Of a stretch of DNA of 11,144 bases, positions 3 to 11,144 are shown piece after piece. The stretch spans positions 1 to 11,144 of the forward strand of contig JAEOUE010000265.1 in the NCBI GenBank assembly GCA_016839515.1. Direction: 5' to 3'. The position numbers were made by a program, and so were the translations under genes. Positions within the stretch are counted from its first letter, which is position 1. Every line of letters begins with the position of its first letter. This stretch comes from Candidatus Hodarchaeum mangrovi. GTDB taxonomy: Archaea > Asgardarchaeota > Heimdallarchaeia > Hodarchaeales > Hodarchaeaceae. The notes beneath the pieces are model-generated. The model searched no databases. It had not been told where the DNA came from and was given only the letters and a program-made list of their open reading frames with translations.

Positions 3-476
3 TTTCGGAAAACTAAAGCCATCATTATTCTCATAGTAGCAATTCTAGGTTATTTCTTCTCTCTTATTTTATGGCTTATCTTTCCTCAAACGATTGATAT
101 TTTTCAATTTGAATTTCCATCTATTTTACGCCTTTTTGGAGCAATTATGGCGGTTTTTACAACTATTCTAACGGTATGGGTCCATCATACTTTAGGAACT
201 CAATATTCTGCAAGGTGGCGAATACGAAAGGATCACCAGCTGATAACTACTGGTCCTTATAGTCTAGTTCGTCATCCAATGTATACTACACTTAATCTAT
301 TTTCTGTTTCAGTTTCAATCATCACAGCAAACACTTTAATTATTTTTTTCGCCTTGTGGGTAGCCATTCCATTTTTTTGGATAACTCGGACTGAAGAAAA
401 GTTTCTGATTGAGCTGTTTGGAGAGGAGTACCTTGAGTACATGAAGAATACAGGTAGATTTTTCCCACGATTTTAA
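3..476 (+). CDS. Isoprenylcysteine carboxyl methyltransferase (ICMT/Ste14/PEMT-like) family membrane methyltransferase, 5'-partial
   Basis: The frame is open from position 3 (FRKTKAIIILIVAILGYFF...), so the ORF-track start at 147 is an internal Met. Family motifs HQLITTGPYSLVRHPMY and EEKFLIELFGEEYLEYMKNTGRFFP are present, with several hydrophobic segments. Confidence 0.9.
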   Translation, partial: FRKTKAIIILIVAILGYFFSLILWLIFPQTIDIFQFEFPSILRLFGAIMAVFTTILTVWVHHTLGTQYSARWRIRKDHQLITTGPYSLVRHPMYTTLNLFSVSVSIITANTLIIFFALWVAIPFFWITRTEEKFLIELFGEEYLEYMKNTGRFFPRF

Positions 477-558: not shown

Positions 559-1104
559 CTATTGTATTTTTTTCCCCATTTCAAACCGTATTTCAACCTC
601 ATGACTCTGTTCTTTTGTGTAGGCCTCTAGGTCAAATCCGATCAACTCAAATCCAAATTTCAGATAAAAATCAATCGCTTTTGTATTAGTGTTTTGGCAT
701 TCCACTACAAGGGCTCGTGAATTATAGGTACGAGCTTTTTTCTCTACAAAAGAGAGTAAGTAAGTTCCAAGTCCTCTTCGCTGATATTCGGGCTGAACCA
801 TAATATCCCAAATACGCGTACGTCTCGAATGGGGTAAATATTCGAATATTACTATAGCCATTTCTAATTGGTTATCATTCTCTAAAATATAGTACTCAGC
901 ATTGGTTTTGTACGCCTCAAAATATACTCCTTTCCATTTTTTATAAAATGTTTCTTTAAATGGAGTTTTTTCCCAGTCAAATATCCATCCCATATTATTG
1001 GGCTTTTTAAACATGTTTAGCTTGTAATAATAATCTGAGGAGTATTCCATTACTTCTTTTTTATTATTTGGGAAATCTTCTTTAAATATTTGTTTGAGTT
1101 TCAT
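559..1104 (-). CDS. GNAT family N-acetyltransferase, streptothricin acetyltransferase (Sat)-like
   Basis: Acetyl-CoA motif A IMVQPEYQRRGLGTYLL. The C-terminal VECQNTNTKAIDFYLKFGFELIGFD resembles the Sat-type ETQxxNxxAxxFY..GF...G.D pattern. The ATG at 1104 (MKLKQ) follows a purine-rich GTGAAGGGA; 1137 is the alternative start. Confidence 0.85.
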   Translation of the reverse strand: MKLKQIFKEDFPNNKKEVMEYSSDYYYKLNMFKKPNNMGWIFDWEKTPFKETFYKKWKGVYFEAYKTNAEYYILENDNQLEMAIVIFEYLPHSRRTRIWDIMVQPEYQRRGLGTYLLSFVEKKARTYNSRALVVECQNTNTKAIDFYLKFGFELIGFDLEAYTKEQSHEVEIRFEMGKKIQ

Positions 1105-1267
1105 GCTGTTCCCTTCACAATTTACAACAGTATACATTCTATCTACATATTTTTAGCACATTTCTCATCCTTGAATTAGAAGTTCCTCTTTTTACAATTT
1201 GCAACCCTTAAAAAAGTGAATTTCCTTTCTTCAAACTTACTTTATTAGAATTAATCTCGCATCTTTC

Positions 1268-2017
1268 TTAGTCTTTTTCAGCCTCAAGAATGAGCAGTTT
1301 GTCTCCCTCGACAAATGGTGTGCACTGATAATTCCCCCACTTATTCGTTATAGTAAATCCTATCTGAGAAAGTAGATCTATAATCTCTTCAAAGGTTGTT
1401 ATAGCTGCTTGAGAGTGTTGAATATCTTCAGTTATTTTTATATCATTTTGATATACTTGATATAATAATGTTACTTGGAGGATATTATTTTTCATGCCTT
1501 CAGTCTTTATTAGTCGCTTTATCGTTTTACCCTCCTTCTCTTTTACTCCTGCAGAAACCCAAGACTTTTCTTTCATTAAGCCCAGAAATACATCAAAAAT
1601 TATTCTTCCTTTCGTCTTTAAATGATGATAGATATTGTTCATAGCTTGATAACGTTCCTTGGGTGTCAAGAAATGATCAAAACATCCTGAGAGAATCGCT
1701 GCAGGATAACATTGAGGTAGGTGGAATTCCTTCGCTTCAGCTTCAATAATTATAATTTTATCTTTAAGGTGGGGTAAATCTTCTAATTTCTCTTTAAACA
1801 TATCTCTCATTGCTTTTGAGGGTTCTATACAAACTACATTCACACCAGTTTGAGCGATCGGTATTGCTATCCTTCCAGTTCCTGCTCCGATATCTAATAT
1901 GGAATTGTACTGCTTTGCGAAATCAACAAAAAACTCTATATTTTGTTTATCATCAAACAGGTCGTAATATTTTGCTGCTTTTTCATATCCCTTATCTATT
2001 GGCATTTTATTTACCAT
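1268..2017 (-). CDS. Class I SAM-dependent methyltransferase (small-molecule type)
   Basis: N-terminal AKYYDL, motif I ILDIGAGTGRIAIPIA, acidic end of beta-2 (CIEPSKAM), and HLKTKGRIIFD. The start may instead be the ATG at 2005. Confidence 0.92.
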   Translation of the reverse strand: MVNKMPIDKGYEKAAKYYDLFDDKQNIEFFVDFAKQYNSILDIGAGTGRIAIPIAQTGVNVVCIEPSKAMRDMFKEKLEDLPHLKDKIIIIEAEAKEFHLPQCYPAAILSGCFDHFLTPKERYQAMNNIYHHLKTKGRIIFDVFLGLMKEKSWVSAGVKEKEGKTIKRLIKTEGMKNNILQVTLLYQVYQNDIKITEDIQHSQAAITTFEEIIDLLSQIGFTITNKWGNYQCTPFVEGDKLLILEAEKD

Positions 2018-2166: not shown

Positions 2167-2772
2167 TTATTGGAGTGGTATTGTAGAACAGGAAGAGAAA
2201 TACCAAGGATGTGATGGATAGCAATATCCTATTGCTTTATTTAGCCATGTTCGCTCTTCAATTGCTAAAAGATCTATTGTTTGAATAAAGTCATGAAAAT
2301 CATAAATGGTAGGGGCTTTCGCTTTGTATAACAGGACAATTTCTGGAGAAAGATAAGGAATACTTTGATATCCAATTCTACCAATTTTATAAAGATGTCT
2401 CTTGACCTGTTGATTCCGTCTGAAATACCAATAACAATGGTCTGATTCATTTAATAGTATTTCAAAATTAATCTTATATTTTTCTTTACTAGGAGATGTT
2501 GTATGAAGTTCATGGATGGGTAGAGATAGCCATTCATTTCTTAACCATTTTTCCTGCTTATATTGCCCTGGAATGACTTTATACAAGGTCCAATCATTAA
2601 GATATTCGTATAATTCCTTCTGATCTTGCCTAAAGATCGCAATTTCAATATCTTTATGCACTCGAGTTTTTTTTCCCAAATATAGGTCAATGGCCCAACC
2701 TCCAGCAATATACCAGGGTTTAGTGAAATTATTTAACATTTTCTTTAATTTCAAAACAATTTTGAACTCCAA
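2167..2772 (-). CDS. Nucleotidyltransferase of the aminoglycoside-2''-adenylyltransferase / lincosamide nucleotidyltransferase-like family
   Basis: PWYIAGGWAIDLYLGKKTRVHKDIEIAIFR (GG...HxDxE Pol-beta-type metal-binding motif) and C-terminal IPYLSPEIVLLYKAK...DF...HPW. TTG start with an in-frame TAG two codons upstream. Confidence 0.85.
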   Translation of the reverse strand: MEFKIVLKLKKMLNNFTKPWYIAGGWAIDLYLGKKTRVHKDIEIAIFRQDQKELYEYLNDWTLYKVIPGQYKQEKWLRNEWLSLPIHELHTTSPSKEKYKINFEILLNESDHCYWYFRRNQQVKRHLYKIGRIGYQSIPYLSPEIVLLYKAKAPTIYDFHDFIQTIDLLAIEERTWLNKAIGYCYPSHPWYFSSCSTIPLQ

Positions 2773-3137: not shown

Positions 3138-4043
3138 ATGGATATTAAAAAACAGGCATCAATTATTTGTTTATTGATAGGTTTACTATTTGCTTCCTTC
3201 ATAAGTCAAAGCTCTGCTCTACTTGTGTGGGATGAGGACTTTGAGAATCCCCCTTTTGATTGGTTTCTCCACAACTATAACTATACTGGAACATGGATAA
3301 ACACTCCAAATAATTTTCCCCCAATTATTGCTAATGGAGCTTTACATATGTCAACACCCAGTGAAATGTTAGCCTCTGCCATTCACAATAGCACAATCGC
3401 GTATGGAAGCTGGAGTTTTGATTTTCACATATCTTTTGATCAGATTCAAGAGAGTGTGAGTAGGATAATGTTCATTGGGAACAATTATGGTGGAGGAGAC
3501 CTTAATTTGACAGGGAAAGCGTACTCTTGGGCTAATAACCAGCCATCATCCTATGTCATTTATATCACATCTGGAACTGATATGTGGGGTTTAACCTTTA
3601 ATACAATAACATTAAAGATCTGGAAACCAGGATATCCAACACATATTTGGGAAACCCTTGCTGATTATATGTTCTCTTCACCTATTATTGGTTCCCATAA
3701 TATGACCATCACCCGCAATTCTACTCAAGGAGAATTCCATGTCTATCTTGATTCAGAACATCTATTTCAAGTCAGTAATAATGAAATCAATACTTCAGAG
3801 ATTTTTGAGTTTGCTTCCTATATCGGAGATATTTCTTTTGATAATCTTACTGTGAATGACGAGACGACCACAAATACCACAACTACTACAACCCCCACAA
3901 CGACCACGATAACGACGATTCATACGTCATCAACCACAACATCCACAGCAATCCCTACATCAAATCCTACTAAGATTGAATTCGGTATAGTAATACTTGG
4001 TTTTATTATAAGTCTGCTCTTCATTCGGAAACGGAAACGCTGA
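3138..4043 (+). CDS. Secreted, C-terminally membrane-anchored cell-surface glycoprotein (beta-rich, possibly concanavalin A/LamG-like domain, Thr-rich linker)
   Basis: Sec signal peptide (MDIKKQASIICLLIGLLFASFISQSSA/), aromatic beta-strand-rich domain (VWDEDF, AYGSWSFDF, HNMTITRN...FHVYLD, ISFDNLTV), 8 N-X-S/T sequons, Thr-rich linker, hydrophobic helix and RKRKR tail. The fold assignment is inference. Confidence 0.85.
   Translation: MDIKKQASIICLLIGLLFASFISQSSALLVWDEDFENPPFDWFLHNYNYTGTWINTPNNFPPIIANGALHMSTPSEMLASAIHNSTIAYGSWSFDFHISFDQIQESVSRIMFIGNNYGGGDLNLTGKAYSWANNQPSSYVIYITSGTDMWGLTFNTITLKIWKPGYPTHIWETLADYMFSSPIIGSHNMTITRNSTQGEFHVYLDSEHLFQVSNNEINTSEIFEFASYIGDISFDNLTVNDETTTNTTTTTTPTTTTITTIHTSSTTTSTAIPTSNPTKIEFGIVILGFIISLLFIRKRKR
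3864..3962 (+). repeat. Low-complexity Thr-rich linker (ACN codon run)
   Basis: Encodes TTTNTTTTTTPTTTTITTIHTSSTTTSTAIPTS using mixed ACN codons, so the repeat is maintained at the protein level. Confidence 0.85.
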
Positions 4044-4478
4044 ATTCTCTCTCTAAAGACTGGATAATGACTCAGGACTTCTAGTGTTTAGATCTGTTCT
4101 AATTCAATTCATTCATCTCAATATTTCCATAGCTACTCCTTCTTTATATCGGATGGGTCAGATGTTGTATTTTTACTTAGCGAGACCATAATCATAACAG
4201 TATCATTTTAGAAATTCAATATTAATATTTGATGAAATAACTAGGTTGTAAAATTTGTTTAAAGAATGCAAGAAATTCGAGTAATAAATACAGGAAATTC
4301 ATTCTTTTTGTTTCAGAGGTCTAGAAGTAGTTCTTTCATTTCATAAATCAGGTTAGAATTGAGAAAATCTTCTACCAAATTTGTACAAATCTTTCAAAAT
4401 TCAATTATTATCCAAAAGCTTTACATATGGTAATTTTTTTTGATACCAAATCTCCGATTTAGGAATGGAACTTCAACC

Positions 4479-6494
4479 ATGGATTTACTAGAGATTAAGA
4501 AGCTTATTGATCAAGGAAAATACCCTCAGGCATTAAAGTCAATAGAGGAATTGCAAGGAGAGGAGAGATTGGATGGAACAATTCTCAAAAGTCAAATATT
4601 CCAACGTAAAGGGGATTTAAAAGGAGCTCTAACAGAGGCAAAAAGAGTTCTTGAGGAATGTCGTGATTCTGGGAGTAATCTTCAAATCTTTAAAGCGCTA
4701 ATAAGCTTGGGATCTGCTCATTATTCCCTTCGAAATATTCCCGAAGTATCTGAAGTCCTTAAGGAAGCAGAAAATCTCTTTTTGCAAGTTGAATTTGAGA
4801 ATAATGATATTCGTCAAGAATGTCAGGGAATCCTAGCATTTTTACAGGCAGGTATAAGCGAGATTAAAGGAAACATCAACGAATCATTAGACTTGTTTGA
4901 GAAGAGCTTAATCATAAGACAAGCCCTCCCTTATCAGCATGATATAGTAGAAACATTAACTAAAATAGGTTTTATTCATTTAGATGTAACTGGAAAAAAA
5001 GAATTGGCTCTTGATCTTTTTAATCGAAGTTTAGCAATCAGTGAGAAACTAGGAAATCCGATTGCGAATGCTCACTCGCTTAACCGTTTGGGTTGTTATT
5101 ATCATTATATTGAAAATTATGATGAAGCCCTTTCTTACTTTGAGCGGAGTCTTGCGTTATATCAAGGAGTAGACAATAAAGAATGGATTGGAGGATTATA
5201 TAATAATATATCTCTTGTATATCGGGCTAAAGAAAACTATGATTTGACATTGAATTACTTAGAGAGAGCTTTAGCGATTTCTGAAGAACTTGAGGATAAA
5301 CGAGCCTTAATAATCAATCATAACAATATTGGATGGCTTTGTGCTTATAAAGGAGATTTGACTTCTGCTGAACATCACTTTTTACAAAGTTTACAGTTTG
5401 CAGAAGAGCTTGGAGATGTTCTTACTCAAGCTTTTGTATCTATGTTCATTGGTGATATTTACTCTATTTGGAAAGGGGAGCTTGTTCCTGGTTTGGATTA
5501 TTATCAACGAAGCTTATCAATATTTCAAGACTCCGAAAGTGATCCAGGAATTGGATGGATCCTACTTAGGATAGGATGGACACATATCTTACGTGGTGAA
5601 CCTGAGTCTGCATTAAAAAACATTGAAGAAAGTGAGCGTATCTTCACCAAACTTGATCTAAAGGGTGGAATTGCCAATTGTTTTGTTCAATTTGGTCGAA
5701 TCTATAAAATCTTAGGAAAATATGACCAAGCAATTAAATACTTGGAAAATAGTTTAAAAATAGTTAAAGAAACGATTATAGGAGCAAATTTGGGTATGTG
5801 GGTCTCTTATATTCTTCTTCAACTTATATTAGTAACTCAGGATCTCGATTCTTTGGATTTAGCTAAAGATTATCTCAAACAAATGCAAGAGCTTAAACAA
5901 ACAAGTAAGAATAATCTTGTGAAATTAAGAGTTCAGTTTTCAGAAGCTATAGTTTTAAAAATGAGTAAAAGAATGGCAGAGAAATTTCAAGCGCAACAGA
6001 ATTTTCAAGCTATTATTAAAGAGGAAATCCTTAGCCATGATATCACAATCTTGTCAATGTTAAATCTGTGTGAACTACTGATTCTAGAAATGAAATACTC
6101 TGAAACTGCAGATGAGCTGCTTGATAAAGTGACTCAGCTTTCAACACAGATTCATACTATTGCTGACAACCAACAATCTTCCTCACTGACAATATTGGCG
6201 CTGTTACTTCAAACAAAACTAGCTTTGGTACAAGGGGACGTTGAAGAGGCTAGCCATCTTCTAAGTAATGCGAAAAAAATTGCTAGTGAGAAGAATCTTA
6301 TCAATCTACTGGTTCAAATCAAAGTAGAACAGGAAACAGTACAAACTGAGCTCGATAAATGGAATCAATTAATACAACGAAAAGCTTCAATACAAGAGCG
6401 TGTTGAACATGCCCAAATAGCCAGCTGGTTAGTTGAAGCGAAGAAAATTCAGGAAACTTGGGTAAACCCAACCTCAGAGATTGCTAATCAGTGA
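4479..6494 (+). CDS. Tetratricopeptide repeat protein (long ~40-aa TPR units, MalT/TPR_12-like) with a helical C-terminal region
   Basis: Repeated units such as AHSLNRLGCYY..ENYDEALSYFERSLAL, GGLYNNISLVYRAKENYDLTLNYLERALAISEELED and NHNNIGWLCAYKGDLTSAEHHFLQSLQFAEELGD. The ATG at 4479 (MDLLEIKKLIDQGKY) is preferred over the TTG at 4440. Confidence 0.93.
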   Translation: MDLLEIKKLIDQGKYPQALKSIEELQGEERLDGTILKSQIFQRKGDLKGALTEAKRVLEECRDSGSNLQIFKALISLGSAHYSLRNIPEVSEVLKEAENLFLQVEFENNDIRQECQGILAFLQAGISEIKGNINESLDLFEKSLIIRQALPYQHDIVETLTKIGFIHLDVTGKKELALDLFNRSLAISEKLGNPIANAHSLNRLGCYYHYIENYDEALSYFERSLALYQGVDNKEWIGGLYNNISLVYRAKENYDLTLNYLERALAISEELEDKRALIINHNNIGWLCAYKGDLTSAEHHFLQSLQFAEELGDVLTQAFVSMFIGDIYSIWKGELVPGLDYYQRSLSIFQDSESDPGIGWILLRIGWTHILRGEPESALKNIEESERIFTKLDLKGGIANCFVQFGRIYKILGKYDQAIKYLENSLKIVKETIIGANLGMWVSYILLQLILVTQDLDSLDLAKDYLKQMQELKQTSKNNLVKLRVQFSEAIVLKMSKRMAEKFQAQQNFQAIIKEEILSHDITILSMLNLCELLILEMKYSETADELLDKVTQLSTQIHTIADNQQSSSLTILALLLQTKLALVQGDVEEASHLLSNAKKIASEKNLINLLVQIKVEQETVQTELDKWNQLIQRKASIQERVEHAQIASWLVEAKKIQETWVNPTSEIANQ

Positions 6495-6562
6495 GATATA
6501 GTCAACAATTATCATCTAATGAACCCGAATGGGGATTTATTCTAAGGATTGAGTTTCTGATC

Positions 6563-6589
6563 TGTAGTCTTGGATGCCACTACATTTTT
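6563..6589 (+). terminator. Possible terminator of the TPR gene
   Basis: TGTAGT-(10 nt)-ACTACA stem followed directly by TTTTT, about 70 nt after the stop codon. The stem is weak. Confidence 0.25.
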
Positions 6590-6864
6590 CCTGTACATTG
6601 AACATTTTCCGAGATAGATATTCAAGAACCAAATAAAATATTTATGTCACCATCAAGATTCCTAGGAATTCAAGTATTAATAATAAAGATTTAATAAGAT
6701 TAATAGAAGTATCTAGGCCAAATATAGTTAGGAACAGTATTAGAAAGATAATTACTAATTTAAGAATAGCATAATTATTATTTTCTACAATTAATGAGAA
6801 TTAATTATTAAATGATCCAAATACTGCTGTATATATAAGTATCAATTCCGTTCCCATAAGAAAA

Positions 6865-6885
6865 TGTCCTAGAATTGTCCTAGAA
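6865..6885. repeat. Short direct repeat TGTCCTAGAA x2 (11-bp period)
   Basis: TGTCCTAGAA at 6865-6874 and 6876-6885, separated by one T. Confidence 0.6.
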
Positions 6886-6907
6886 GGATAATTTTCAGCT
6901 GTCTTTT

Positions 6908-8083
6908 TTACTCCATAACAGTCCAACTTTGATAGCCACAGAATGGACAAGCGGGATCCATATTTCCTTTCATAAGTATCAAAGATTCAAATTCTGATGT
7001 TTGAATCCCCCTGAGACATCGCGAACAGAATATGGAGTTATCTAGTTCTAGTGGGCTACCGCTTAGCATAGAATATGTACTAATGACTCTTCTAACCACT
7101 TTAGTTCTCGCTTTCCTTAATATAGTTGTGGCTCGTTCTTGATTGGAGAAGATTAAACCAAGACCTAGAAAGAACACCATGATTAATAAAAGGTCTAAAG
7201 AGAAATATCCCTCTAGTCTAGAGCTCGAACTTCCTATATAGAAGAAAATAGCAATTATACCTATCCAATGGAGATTATTCCACGTTCCTTTCATAATTTT
7301 ATTAAGATTATTTCCAATAAAGACTAAGCTAGCCTCAATAAACCTTTGAATAGCCCTACTAGCTATTTTAACAAAATGGAAGATACGTATTGGTAGATGA
7401 CGCAACCCAGTAATTAAGCTCTCAAATAATCCTTGAAGAGTATTCTTGATTAATTGTAATAATGCCCCAATTGCTGCTCTATATTGGTAATTACGAATAT
7501 AGAGGATACTCATGGTTGCTAAATTAACTATTTTATCATCCCAATCCGTTCTGTGAAGTGAGACACCCAAAATTATTAACAATAAGCCAAGAGGAATCAT
7601 TATGATATAATCTTCAAAGCTTGAGGGTAATCTAAAGATATGAGATAATATTTGAGTGAAAATGGGAAAAGCAAAGAATACTCCAGGGAGGAAAAAGAAG
7701 ATAATACCCATATCAGTTATCAGGACACCTAGAGCTCCCCATTCGGAGAACTCTCGCCATCGTAGTACATCGATCACAAATGCTAATATTAAAAAATAAA
7801 ATGGGAAAATAATGATTTGAATCAGGCGCTGTGTCTGTTCCTCTGATGTCTTCCCACCGTACCCAAAAATTACACCAAGAGCTAAGGAGAAAAAGAAGAT
7901 AACAATTCCTATTTGAGTAGCCCGGGAAAATGCCTTGGCATGATAAAATTCTGAAATTTCCTTCCTGACTTGAGTGATAAGAGCTTCTTGTTTCTTTGTT
8001 TTACTTGTCACTATTTCTGTGTGAGCCTTATAATCTTCTTCAGCTTGTTTTTTATCAAATCCTAACCATTCTTTGTCATTCAT
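6908..8083 (-). CDS. Hypothetical polytopic membrane protein (~6 TM, long amphipathic helix) with a C-terminal C4 zinc finger
   Basis: Charged N-terminus, about 4 TM segments, a long amphipathic stretch, a 2-TM hairpin, a basic helix, then CSRC-x22-CPFC. The start is placed at ATG 8083 (MNDKEW) because AAGGTGAG lies 4 nt upstream and the ATG overlaps the upstream gene's end (ATGAATGA). Confidence 0.85.
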   Translation of the reverse strand: MNDKEWLGFDKKQAEEDYKAHTEIVTSKTKKQEALITQVRKEISEFYHAKAFSRATQIGIVIFFFSLALGVIFGYGGKTSEEQTQRLIQIIIFPFYFLILAFVIDVLRWREFSEWGALGVLITDMGIIFFFLPGVFFAFPIFTQILSHIFRLPSSFEDYIIMIPLGLLLIILGVSLHRTDWDDKIVNLATMSILYIRNYQYRAAIGALLQLIKNTLQGLFESLITGLRHLPIRIFHFVKIASRAIQRFIEASLVFIGNNLNKIMKGTWNNLHWIGIIAIFFYIGSSSSRLEGYFSLDLLLIMVFFLGLGLIFSNQERATTILRKARTKVVRRVISTYSMLSGSPLELDNSIFCSRCLRGIQTSEFESLILMKGNMDPACPFCGYQSWTVME

Positions 8084-11000
8084 AAGTCTCACCTTTGTTT
8101 TTTTCTGCATAATTAGTTTCTGATGGGATTGTTTTTGTCATACGTGATCGTAAACTAGTTAGCTTTAATGGTTCTCGGTGTTTTGGATTGTATAGCATTA
8201 GCATTAATATCCCAAATGAACCAATTAGAATAATTCCAAGAATAATTAGTATTAATGGCTCTGCATCTTTCAAGAATCCTAGTAGGGATTCAACATTTTG
8301 GGGTGAATTCGCCTCTGGTTGAAACCACATTGCAATAGAACTCAGAACATCTCCTACAATATCAATGTTAAGTAAAAACCTAGACCAGTCCCCTAAAAAG
8401 GCGGAAGTGAGTAAAATAAATCCATATCCTATTGCCAAAAATGAAATTATTGCTATCAAAATTAGAAAAACCGAATTTAGTGACTGTTTTAGGTATTTAA
8501 TCAATTGATTTATTGTTTTTTCAACCAATTCTAATAAATTTTGAAGGAGTTTATTGAGAGCTACTATTATTTGTTTTATTAGGTCAATAATTTGAGTAAA
8601 CCAAGCAATTATTAAAACAAGTAGTCCTCCAATCCGAATAGTAATCTCAAGGGGAGCTGGAAGTTGTATACTTAAACTAAAATTGACAACTTCTGGTCCT
8701 AAGAGTAAAGCAAAACATCCAGTAAATGTAAGGAATCCGCGGAGAATCCCCCAACGGTGATCAATGAGATATTGGATAAATGAGTTTATTGCATTTGAAA
8801 TTGTTTTAATAATTTCTGCTATACTATTGATTATTTCTCTAATTATATTACCTATTAACGCATTAATTTGATGATTCCAAGTTATATACAATAGAATAAT
8901 CCCTATAAACCTAAAAACCACATCAAACGTATTTCCAAGTTCAATGCGACTCAATAATCGAATCAAAAATGTCCCAGTGAAGAATAAGAACACTCCAATG
9001 AATGTTAATCCTCCTCGGGCAATATTTCTTTGGTGATCTAGTATATATTGTATTAGATGTTTAAAATAAGCTGTCAGTGATTTTATTATTTGATTGAAAA
9101 GCTCGAGAGTTCTAAGATAGGTAATTTTCAATCTATGTCCAAATGCAATCAAAAAGTCGTGTATTTGGGTATACCAGGCAATTACCAATGGAATTACTCC
9201 CAAAATACGCAAAAATTCTAAAAATGGATAATAATTTCCAGAAAACAGCTCTAGATAAACTAATGGGGCATATAAAAAAATAATAATACTTGAGAATGTA
9301 AGGAGTCCACGAATGATATCCCACCAGTGATCTACGAGATATAGAATAAATATATACAATTTATTAACTGTTAATGAGATTATATGAGAAATTAATTTAG
9401 CAGCTTCTTTTATAAACTCAATGATGATATTTTTAAGGAGGTAAAGGATTTTTATTAATTCTTTGTGCCACAAATTTATATTTACTAGTAATGCTATAAC
9501 TAAAAAAGTACCAGAGATCATCCTTGAAGAATCTAAGGGATTAGGATTTATTAGAGAATATTTTAAGTATGATATAAAGCTTATGACCCCAAGAATGGTT
9601 GCTAATATTGTTCCAACTAGTTTCATATGCTTATGATGATACCATGCAAATATTGCTAAGAAAAAACCGCTTAGTGATATTATTACAGGAAATGAAATAT
9701 TAAGCGGTTCTTTTATGGTTAGAATGCCCACCAAGAACAAAATTAGACCTATAGTAGAAATTGTATACCTTATAATTTCCTGATAATTATATTCAATAAA
9801 ATTAAAAACCTGTTTAAGTATCTTAACTAGTTTATTGATAAAAAGGATTAATGAGATATAAATAGATTCTAGTGCAGATTTAATTATTATTCCTATGGCC
9901 GAGAAAATACCTATAAGTGCATTTTTGAGTTCTAATTTCCATAGATATAAGTTGACACTGAAGCCAACAACCAGATAAACTACAGAAAACTCAAAAGAAG
10001 GATTACTAAAAGCAATTGTAAAAGGAGAGAGACCAATTAATCCTAAGATAATGAGTATTGAACTGAGTACTGTACCATATCTTTTTACATTTGAGTGGTT
10101 GTACCAAGCTACTATTGCAATAGTGTATCCAGTTAGAAACAGAAATGTATTCAAATTATCTATTATCTGATACCAATAGATTGAGTCTATTACAATCATC
10201 AAGACGCCAATAGCAAAAATAATGTATCGAAAAATCAAGAATTTATGAATATTGAGAAGTAAGAGAACATTTTGGATTTTAAAAACTATAGATTTAACAA
10301 TTGACTCAACTAATCTGTGTATACCTCTAATGATACTCACAATAGCTAAATAAATTTCCTTTCTCCAGATTAAAACAAGATAACAAAATACTGAAAGTAG
10401 TAATATAGGAGGAAGCCAGCTTTCTATAGATTCAAATTCAAAAGGATATTGAATTATCAAAATAATGCTCCACAACAATAATAGAATACTTTCTGTTGAA
10501 GTTATACCTTTAAAATAGCGATGTCCAATCCAAACTGCTGAACCAGAGATATATCCTACTAAAAAGAGTATAATCGCTAGGAAGATAGAATTTGTTAATA
10601 AATTAAGCGAAATTGCAATAAAGATTGGAATAAGACTGAATACAAATATTATTATACGGACTATTAACGCAAAATGTATTTTAAACCAATAAATAAGTGG
10701 TTCATCAATACGTGTTAGCTCTATTAAAAATCCGAATATGCAAAGAACTAGTCCACATCCAAAAAGATAATCAGAGATCATATAAATTGGATGAATATTC
10801 AATTCAGGTAAAAGATCAAGGATTCCAGGTATAATTGCGATAAATAAACCGAATAGTCCAATTAATCCCCCAAATGATGAATTTCGGTTTCTTTCCATCT
10901 TATTTATAAAACGAAGATGAAAAAATGTAATAACTAAATTCATGCTAAATAGAGTAACCAGAAAATAGTGTAGAATTGTTCTTACGATTGTGAAGTCGAT

Positions 11001-11105
11001 ATTTCCGATTTTCCATGTTAAAATGGTTTGAAAAATTAGCAGTGTGACTGCTATCATTGCTGCACCTTTGGTAGATGCTTTAAGAGTAGATTCCCACGAC
11101 CTCAT
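8076..11105 (-). CDS. Large hypothetical polytopic membrane protein (~24 TM by eye) with six internal hairpin/amphipathic-helix repeats
   Basis: Uninterrupted 1011-codon, very hydrophobic ORF with recurring H/N-x5-R and G-x7-W motifs. Of three tandem ATGs (11111, 11108, 11105), the third has the best spacing (7 nt) from AGGAG at 11113-11117. Confidence 0.88.
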   Translation of the reverse strand: MRSWESTLKASTKGAAMIAVTLLIFQTILTWKIGNIDFTIVRTILHYFLVTLFSMNLVITFFHLRFINKMERNRNSSFGGLIGLFGLFIAIIPGILDLLPELNIHPIYMISDYLFGCGLVLCIFGFLIELTRIDEPLIYWFKIHFALIVRIIIFVFSLIPIFIAISLNLLTNSIFLAIILFLVGYISGSAVWIGHRYFKGITSTESILLLLWSIILIIQYPFEFESIESWLPPILLLSVFCYLVLIWRKEIYLAIVSIIRGIHRLVESIVKSIVFKIQNVLLLLNIHKFLIFRYIIFAIGVLMIVIDSIYWYQIIDNLNTFLFLTGYTIAIVAWYNHSNVKRYGTVLSSILIILGLIGLSPFTIAFSNPSFEFSVVYLVVGFSVNLYLWKLELKNALIGIFSAIGIIIKSALESIYISLILFINKLVKILKQVFNFIEYNYQEIIRYTISTIGLILFLVGILTIKEPLNISFPVIISLSGFFLAIFAWYHHKHMKLVGTILATILGVISFISYLKYSLINPNPLDSSRMISGTFLVIALLVNINLWHKELIKILYLLKNIIIEFIKEAAKLISHIISLTVNKLYIFILYLVDHWWDIIRGLLTFSSIIIFLYAPLVYLELFSGNYYPFLEFLRILGVIPLVIAWYTQIHDFLIAFGHRLKITYLRTLELFNQIIKSLTAYFKHLIQYILDHQRNIARGGLTFIGVFLFFTGTFLIRLLSRIELGNTFDVVFRFIGIILLYITWNHQINALIGNIIREIINSIAEIIKTISNAINSFIQYLIDHRWGILRGFLTFTGCFALLLGPEVVNFSLSIQLPAPLEITIRIGGLLVLIIAWFTQIIDLIKQIIVALNKLLQNLLELVEKTINQLIKYLKQSLNSVFLILIAIISFLAIGYGFILLTSAFLGDWSRFLLNIDIVGDVLSSIAMWFQPEANSPQNVESLLGFLKDAEPLILIILGIILIGSFGILMLMLYNPKHREPLKLTSLRSRMTKTIPSETNYAEKNKGETYE
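8088..8095 (-). promoter_or_regulatory. Archaeal-type Shine-Dalgarno site (GGTGA) inside the 3' end of the upstream gene
   Basis: The minus strand reads AAGGTGAG-ACTT-ATGAATGA. Confidence 0.7.
8472..9341 (-). repeat. Three intragenic short repeats (type B, ~92-98 aa, 2 TM plus amphipathic helix)
   Basis: YLVDHWWDIIRGLLTF / YILDHQRNIARGGLTF / YLIDHRWGILRGFLTF and RILGVIPLVIAWYTQI / RFIGIILLYITWNHQI / RIGGLLVLIIAWFTQI. Similarity is still visible in the DNA (8724-8771 vs 9294-9341, 570 nt apart). Confidence 0.88.
9342..10688 (-). repeat. Three intragenic long repeats (type A, 143-153 aa, ~4 TM plus amphipathic helix)
   Basis: AVWIGHRYFK / VAWYNHSNVK / FAWYHHKHMK and YLVLIWRKEI / VNLYLWKLEL / VNINLWHKEL (ORF residues ~142-590). 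Confidence 0.8.
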
Positions 11106-11144
11106 CATCATTCTCCTATGTGAAACATTTATCTAGAAAATATC

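Follow-up and report, generated by a model that had tools for sequence, protein, structure and literature searches.

A conserved pair of overlapping genes

The stretch of Candidatus Hodarchaeum mangrovi DNA analyzed here (contig JAEOUE010000265.1, 11,144 nucleotides [nt] at its full length; hereafter the window) carries on its minus strand two overlapping genes that encode a large and a small membrane protein. The open reading frame (ORF) of the large gene (8076..11111) translates into 1011 amino acids (P0002); in the database call, the gene starts at position 11105 and its product has 1009 amino acids (P0004, 100 per cent identical over 1009 amino acids). The ORF of the small gene (6908..8083) encodes 391 amino acids (P0001). 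An alternative ATG at position 8110 would lengthen the small gene to 6908..8110 (400 amino acids) and the overlap to 35 nt. Because inspection of the junction sequence revealed no purine-rich element ahead of that codon, we regard the ATG at 8083 as the better start. A homolog from a Hermodarchaeota metagenome-assembled genome (P0003, 97 per cent identical to the small protein) is likewise 391 amino acids long and begins with MNDKEW, as does the product of the ATG at 8083.

At the junction (8076..8093, minus strand), which reads ...AAAGGTGAGACTTATGAATGA, a GGTGA element (8093–8089) lies 5 nt before the ATG of the small gene (8083–8081), the TGA of the large gene is located at 8078–8076, and the two genes share 8 nt (ATGAATGA). 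The window as a whole is AT-rich (GC content of 28–36 per cent). An earlier interpretation made from the letters alone (the sequence-only reading) had reported an 8-nt overlap with an internal GGTGA site, and the junction sequence bears this out.

When 185,579 species genomes were scanned by pattern, 109 matches emerged, three of which encode a relative. These three related loci come from Heimdallarchaeota (L001, CP070665.1), Hermodarchaeota (L002, JBHLKY010000001.1), and Promethearchaeota (L003, JBHLPQ010000015.1). At each of them a large-family gene precedes a small-family gene and overlaps it by 4 nt, and a purine-rich element lies 5–8 nt upstream of the small-gene start; with the window included, such elements are present at four of four loci, every one of which holds exactly one member of each family. 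The window proteins are 35–38 per cent (small) and 25–29 per cent (large) identical to their counterparts at the three loci, among which P0009 and P0011 are the small proteins of L001 and L003, respectively. Given the overlaps and the purine-rich elements, translational coupling of the two genes, as the sequence-only reading had proposed, is plausible, and its suggestion to look for the gene pair across genomes led to genes that are paired and overlapping at all four loci examined. The flanking genes, on the other hand, differ among the window (tetratricopeptide repeat [TPR] protein, surface protein, nucleotidyltransferase, methyltransferase, and GNAT acetyltransferase), L001 (winged-helix regulator), L002, and L003. 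Since they are not conserved, the pair itself is the conserved unit.

More relatives were found for each family separately. A full-library HMMER search assigned 38 clusters to the small family at E ≤ 1e-3 (35 at E ≤ 1e-10), with lengths from 62 to 1412 amino acids and no large-type protein among them. A word-indexed search yielded at least three large-family relatives (P0005, P0006, and P0044); relatives of the large protein are 986–1405 amino acids long and vary in their number of repeats.

A module shared by the two proteins

The N-terminal regions of the two proteins resemble each other in layout and in their conserved residues. In the large protein, the region in question (residues ~50–149; 10665..10964, minus strand) comprises the second transmembrane (TM) helix, a loop with R67, TM3 (G81, G88), TM4 (G120, G127), and T133-x2-D136-E-P, and these residues are invariant in six of six family members. 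The corresponding region of the small protein (residues ~93–195; 7499..7807, minus strand) comprises TM2, the LRWR110 loop, TM3 (G119, G126), TM4 (G166, G173), and T179-x2-D182, with conservation in 27–30 of 30 sequences. The motifs by which the sequence-only reading had related the two proteins are present at G81–G96 and G120–D136 of the large protein and at G119–G134 and G166–D182 of the small one; their end positions had been given exactly, whereas the start positions fall one codon inside the quoted strings. The ‘PG’ of its common pattern does not hold at the family level, as it is specific to the large-protein copy in the window and is not conserved among large-protein relatives.

When the core of the small family (30 sequences) was aligned profile to profile (hhalign) with the N-terminus of the large family (6 sequences), the score was 45.8 (P = 1.4e-5, probability of 80 per cent), and small-protein residues 93–232 were placed onto large-protein residues 50–174, in the register of the quoted motifs. 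The reversed alignment scored 17.2, and the maxima were 23.8 among 100 free column shuffles and 25.8 among 100 shuffles inside 20-column blocks, which preserve the TM layout; none of the 200 shuffles reached the observed score. When the small core was aligned with the whole large-family alignment, the N-terminal module was the top match (score of 47.7, P = 6.4e-5, probability of 64 per cent), and the other hairpins of the large protein scored at most 26.6 (probability ≤ 1.4 per cent). Over all comparisons of the module, probabilities ranged from 58 to 80 per cent and P-values from 1.4e-5 to 1e-4. The alignment has 118 columns; the small family conserves 24 of them, the large family 32, and both families 12, of which 8 hold the same residue (small/large: R110/R67, L118/L80, G119/G81, G126/G88, G166/G120, G173/G127, T179/T133, and D182/D136). 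The N-terminal signature noticed in the sequence-only reading is therefore real at the level of the families, and the profile–profile comparison that it had suggested is significant. To judge from these alignments, a module of ~100 residues, consisting of an arginine loop, two G-x6-G helices, and a T-x2-D cap, is probably homologous between the two proteins and occupies the same place in both.

The resemblance could instead be a convergent, glycine-rich composition of TM hairpins in two co-transcribed neighbors that are neither paralogs nor partners. Direct comparisons leave room for such convergence: BLASTP of the small against the large protein gave a best E-value of 0.25, between amphipathic helices and outside the motif, and in hidden Markov model (HMM)-to-sequence searches neither N-terminal module HMM matched the other family at E ≤ 1. 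TM segments are, moreover, compositionally biased, and the large-family profile was built on only six sequences. Yet the hhalign score lies about 10 standard deviations above shuffles that preserve composition and position, the match is confined to the co-linear N-terminal module and does not extend to other hairpins, eight family-invariant residues coincide, and gene order and overlap are kept at four of four loci from three Asgard lineages. We consider this reading of mere neighbors with a convergent motif quite unlikely.

Homologous TM modules encoded by adjacent or overlapping genes, and presumed to pair, are also a feature of the paired small multidrug resistance (SMR) proteins EbrAB and YdgEF. 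The pair described here differs from them in being very unequal in length (1011 versus 391 amino acids), in sharing only ~100 homologous residues, and in matching no transport family.

The large protein: tandem helix–hairpin repeats

The large protein is all-helical and polytopic, with about 24–27 hydrophobic segments in its hydropathy profile, which are 17–21 amino acids long and separated by loops. An HMM iterated on the large family delimits five repeat units downstream of the N-terminal module, all encoded on the minus strand: residues 251–343 (10083..10361; domain E = 2.7e-11), 408–499 (9615..9890; E = 3.1e-22), 557–655 (9147..9443; E = 5.6e-24), 655–754 (8850..9149; E = 6.3e-28), and 751–846 (8574..8861; E = 2.5e-28). 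A sixth, weak unit spans residues 841–935 (8307–8591; E = 8.9e-5). The repeats escape an untiled BLASTP comparison of the protein with itself and required tiling, which matched residues 293–395 with 446–552 (E = 7e-12), 567–679 with 757–874 (E = 4e-14), and 687–782 with 779–874 (E = 4e-14).

Each unit consists of a helix of 35–50 residues with a high hydrophobic moment (muH), followed by a TM hairpin. The amphipathic helices are located at residues 249–283 (in the first unit, with a muH of 0.77), 419–451, 549–585, 664–709, 743–785, and 832–885. A muH of at least 0.45 is reached by 15.7 per cent of the 18-amino-acid segments of the protein, compared to 2.6 ± 1.3 per cent (maximum of 8.6 per cent) in 200 shuffles, and the TM hairpins and amphipathic helices that had been read from the sequence of the large protein are thus confirmed. 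The protein is closed by a two-TM module (residues ~876–976; 8184..8486, minus strand; delimited by conservation and hydropathy), in which S903, G907, G945, I956, and G959 are invariant in six of six large-family members, and by a lysine- and arginine-rich tail. Because the long lysine- and arginine-rich connectors come after an even number of TM helices, they and both termini are predicted to be cytosolic, a topology derived from the positive-inside rule.

Many TM helices arranged in repeated units with cytosolic amphipathic helices, together with conserved G-x6-G helix-packing faces, would also suit a channel, transporter, or mechanosensor for which the small protein serves as a regulatory subunit. 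Piezo channels offer an analogy: their four-helix TM units, arranged in a curved blade, recur in tandem, and an amphipathic helix on the cytosolic side comes before each of them. However, neither Pfam nor NCBIfam returned a transporter or channel family, we identified no conserved charged or polar intramembrane network, and the variation in repeat number among relatives suits a scaffold better than a pore of fixed build. There is no sequence match to Piezo either; the likeness is one of architecture only, and the model of the large protein has a predicted local distance difference test score (pLDDT) of 50. We give little credence to a channel-like function.

The small protein: a conserved, predicted zinc ribbon in a variable cytosolic region

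According to an AlphaFold2 (AF2) model and hydropathy, the small protein is composed, in order, of a cytosolic N-terminal helix, four TM helices, three amphipathic helices, a TM hairpin, a helix, and a C-terminal zinc ribbon. The model, calculated with 31 sequences, has a pLDDT of 77 and a predicted TM-score (pTM) of 0.53, and its helices over residues 170–250 are predicted with a pLDDT of 86–95. The amphipathic helices (residues 180–269) and the TM hairpin (residues 271–318), which were delimited from the AF2 model and muH, are encoded by 7130..7546 (minus strand); the best amphipathic segment spans residues 226–260 (muH of 0.73), and W268, N270, H272, and G275 are nearly invariant in the family. 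In the small protein, 11.2 per cent of 18-amino-acid segments reach a muH of 0.45, compared to 3.8 ± 2.7 per cent in shuffles. The amphipathic signal that the sequence-only reading had noted is thus weaker here than in the large protein and falls within the maximum of the shuffles (13.6 per cent).

The small protein carries a predicted and conserved C4 zinc ribbon (C353-x2-C356 ... C379-P-F-C382-G; 6911..7051, minus strand), which is predicted to face the cytosol. C356 is invariant across 31 aligned sequences, and C353, C379, P380, C382, and W387 are each present in at least 90 per cent of them. The second knuckle of the ribbon reads CPFCG, and both CxxC knuckles are conserved in the family, as in a C4 ribbon of the CPxCG type. 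In the AF2 model, the region contains short strands at residues 350–352 and 359–361 (pLDDT of 71–84 over residues 341–390), and no Pfam zinc-ribbon model matched the small protein of the window at E ≤ 0.01. The division into a long repeat subunit and a short zinc-finger subunit, which the sequence-only reading had proposed, agrees with the repeats of the large protein and the conserved C4 ribbon of the small one.

Beyond the membrane core, members of the small family vary considerably. Among 39 sequences, the CxxC...CPxC pattern occurs in 30, a C-terminal extension of more than 100 amino acids in 21, an N-terminal extension of more than 100 amino acids in 4, and two or more repeats of ~42 amino acids (‘FPDY...LGA...SEL’) in 13. 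The latter repeats follow the consensus FPDYxSYxRAQxLGAxxYSELxxIDxxxAPDxETAxKIxxG and stand in tandem in long cytosolic arms, which end in another zinc ribbon. Such arms are encoded at positions 12680–14644 of L001, 5250–6227 of L003, and 12977–13957 of L002, in the last case as a separate ORF downstream. No repeat-arm ORF is present in the window between positions 6495 and 6907. The arm repeats have no Pfam match, and the L002 arm protein has no match among PDB sequences.

These arms and ribbons raise the possibility that the small protein uses its ribbon or arm to anchor a cytoskeletal or nucleic-acid partner to the membrane, and that the large protein only stabilizes or positions the small one. 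In CdpC, a membrane anchor of the haloarchaeal Z-ring, CPxCG ribbons mediate the binding of FtsZ1 at the membrane, where the zinc ribbon acts as a protein adaptor (bioRxiv 10.64898/2026.07.16.738847). An archaeal CPxCG ribbon that binds proteins at the membrane, with involvement of an amphipathic helix, is what CdpC has in common with the small protein, and more than half of the small-family sequences (21/39) have long cytosolic arms with ~42-amino-acid repeats. However, CdpC, which the small protein resembles in description, is a peripheral protein without TM helices whose two ribbons are joined by a disordered linker. The arm repeats, as noted above, resemble nothing in Pfam or the PDB, and the copy in the window has no arm. 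We regard such an anchoring role as unlikely.

In five of the 39 sequences (P0030, P0033, P0035, P0037, and P0043), the C4 ribbon is replaced by a double zinc ribbon and a RING-like C2-C2-H2-C2 finger. Pfam RING models matched 4 of the 23 relatives scanned (P0030, P0033, P0035, and P0037), just under threshold: zf-RING_2 reached 22–25 bits in three relatives and 15 bits in P0035 (cut-off of 27.3), and Prok-RING_1 reached up to 23 bits (cut-off of 29.1). With such fingers in the family, and with ubiquitin systems reported from Asgard archaea, the pair might work in the manner of a ubiquitin ligase, as a membrane-embedded machine for protein modification or quality control in which the zinc finger of the small subunit brings in a substrate or an E2-like protein. 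Hrd1 and Doa10/MARCH6, polytopic RING E3 ligases of eukaryotes, likewise bear a zinc finger on the cytosolic side of the membrane. In the window, however, no more than four cysteines are present in the small protein, which RING models do not match, and the RING-like matches of its relatives all lie under the Pfam cut-offs. No ubiquitin, E1, or E2 genes are found in the window or at L001–L003. Nor did we find sequence or fold similarity to Hrd1 or Doa10/MARCH6, which have an eight-ligand cross-brace in place of a C4 ribbon. A ligase-type machine is, in our judgment, very unlikely. We also rejected the identification of the window protein itself as a RING finger E3, in view of its four conserved cysteines, the missing eight-ligand cross-brace, and the lack of a RING match.

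Searches against known families and structures

Neither protein matched any family in Pfam, NCBIfam, PADLOC, or PHROGs. That the sequence-only reading recognized no motif of a transporter, enzyme, or ATPase agrees with the Pfam and NCBIfam results, and readings of the pair as a defense system or as phage genes were rejected on the basis of the PADLOC and PHROGs results. No Pfam family was matched consistently by the six large-family members. Against PDB sequences, the large-family profile had no match, and the best match of the small-family profile (E = 0.0065) was to an unrelated chain, in the columns of the extension. The AF2 model of the small protein matched no fold in the PDB or BFVD (best E-value of 0.11, with TM-scores of at most 0.2). 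In the ESM Atlas, the small protein matched unnamed Thermoplasmatota clusters at best (0.76, under the lead level), and the large protein had no usable match.

We found no published description of either family in a literature search that excluded the supplementary tables of Asgard orthologs (e.g. asCOG), which may list both families as uncharacterized groups. Within the libraries and searches used, neither protein matches a characterized family.

The reticulon, REEP, and Yop1 proteins, which shape membranes, resemble the pair in architecture: TM hairpins are combined with amphipathic helices that lie on the cytosolic leaflet, and an enzymatic motif is absent. In contrast to their wedge segments of 30–35 residues, the pair has TM helices of 17–21 residues with a loop; it also has five to six tandem units in a 1011-amino-acid protein and a zinc-finger partner. 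Membership in the reticulon/REEP group, whose mark is a reticulon-homology or TB2/DP1 domain with long hydrophobic hairpins that do not span the membrane, was ruled out from the ordinary length of the hydrophobic segments and from the lack of a Pfam match for either protein or for any of the six large-family members.

Other genes in the window and at the related loci

The 3′ end of the small gene is overlapped, in another frame, by a TTG-started ORF of 49 amino acids (6801–6950, minus strand) that is probably spurious, and neither a gene nor a terminator stands out convincingly in the spacer at 6495–6907. A gene for a TPR-repeat protein of 684 amino acids (4440–6494, plus strand; TPR_12, E = 1.7e-48) runs convergently to the gene pair. 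This protein accounts for the sole PADLOC match of the window, with a generic TPR model (4e-13), and is not conserved beside the pair in L001–L003. What looks like a protein anchored at the surface, and probably glycosylated, is encoded at 3138–4043 (plus strand; 301 amino acids). It has an N-terminal hydrophobic signal or anchor, a threonine-rich linker (TTTNTTTTTTPTTTT...), and, at the C-terminus, a TM helix and then RKRKR; it belongs to no real Pfam family, its sole match being spurious and due to low complexity.

The remaining genes of the window encode a nucleotidyltransferase-fold protein of 201 amino acids (2167–2772, minus strand), a class I S-adenosylmethionine methyltransferase (1268–2017, minus strand), a GNAT acetyltransferase (559–1137, minus strand), and an isoprenylcysteine-carboxyl-methyltransferase-like membrane protein that is cut by the window start (3–476, plus strand; NF040696, 2e-31, below the cut-off). 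The nucleotidyltransferase-fold protein matches PF10706 (Aminoglyc_resit) with 40 bits (cut-off of 21); we do not call it a resistance gene product, because its scores against the NCBIfam models for Lnu and ANT(2'') (~24 bits) are far under their cut-offs (300–350).

In L002, the large gene is directly preceded by a gene (6622–7938, plus strand) that overlaps the large-gene start by 4 nt. The product of this preceding gene, 438 amino acids long, has a C-type lectin domain (Lectin_C, E = 3e-21), which is typical of eukaryotes and here found in an Asgard genome, and a C-terminal TM helix. Downstream of the pair in L002 and L003 lie a gene for a short-chain dehydrogenase (SDR) and then, on the opposite strand, one for a MacB-like FtsX permease, joined in L003 by an ABC ATPase gene; the SDR and MacB-like set is absent from the window and L001.

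A candidate membrane platform of Asgard archaea

We propose that the two genes form a translationally coupled Asgard operon and that their products most likely make up one complex, in which the large protein would be the scaffold and the small protein a cytosol-facing adaptor. The probability that we attach to this reading as a whole is roughly 0.4. A physical association of the two proteins is what we infer from the coupling, the synteny, the shared module, and the architecture.

In the proposed complex, both subunits would start with the homologous four-TM module, with the arginine loop in the cytosol between the hairpins, a G-x6-G face presented by each of TM3 and TM4, and the T-x2-D cap at the cytosolic end of TM4. 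The large subunit would continue with five to six tandem units, in each of which a cytosolic amphipathic helix of 35–50 residues is stapled to the membrane by a TM hairpin, and would be closed by the conserved two-TM module. It could in this way serve as a membrane-embedded structural platform that lines the cytoplasmic leaflet. The small subunit, with one amphipathic region, one hairpin, and the cytosolic C4 zinc ribbon, may dock through its paralogous four-TM module, for which the G-x6-G faces are plausible packing surfaces. It would then be the variable, cytosol-facing adaptor that recruits soluble partners, by means of the ribbon in the window and of arms, extra ribbons, or RING-like fingers elsewhere.

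Several observations weigh against this proposal, in addition to the negative BLASTP and HMM searches, the small number of large-family sequences, and the position of the small protein’s amphipathic signal below its top shuffle. The hhalign probabilities for the shared module are under the usual comfort level of 95 per cent. A profile of the repeat unit matched the small family with probabilities of 7 and 3.5 per cent, which is not significant. The second half of the small protein looks like one large-protein repeat unit in architecture, a resemblance that is statistically unsupported; the ancient duplication envisaged in the sequence-only reading is supported, at the profile–profile level, for the ~100-residue N-terminal TM module and not for a derivation of the rest of the small protein from a repeat unit. 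The AF2 model of the large protein (6 sequences) has, along with its low pLDDT, a pTM of 0.26 and is too poor for a comparison of folds. Synteny was seen from the side of the large protein only, at three loci plus the window, and the count takes in three of the 38 small-family clusters (P0003, P0009, and P0011), the RING-like clusters being among the other 35. Complex prediction with large-protein residues 1–260, small-protein residues 45–391, and custom alignments speaks neither for nor against binding (scores of 0.09 and 0.04; mark of 0.32).

No known prokaryotes are more closely related to eukaryotes than the Asgard archaea. The construction and organization of their unusual membranes is an open question, on which the literature has focused on ESCRT, Arf GTPases, and similar systems. 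Members of three named Asgard groups conserve the gene pair, which has no detectable relative in curated families or solved structures. A conserved pair of this kind, with amphipathic helix–hairpin repeats in one subunit and an exchangeable second subunit, is therefore a concrete candidate for a lineage-specific membrane platform. Going further, and as a long shot, the pair could be an Asgard-specific membrane-organizing machine, whose large subunit shapes or patterns the membrane (e.g. in protrusions or internal membranes) by means of its in-plane amphipathic helices and whose small subunit is a plug-in adaptor that couples it, through a zinc ribbon, a repeat arm, or a RING-like finger, to the cytoskeleton or to ubiquitin-type machinery. 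If so, it would be a prokaryotic functional analog of the eukaryotic complexes that shape the endoplasmic reticulum and of membrane-bound E3 complexes, in the lineage closest to eukaryotes. Even if the function turns out to be mundane, the analysis defines two new protein families with the boundaries of their domains, and a module, common to both, by which they can be diagnosed.

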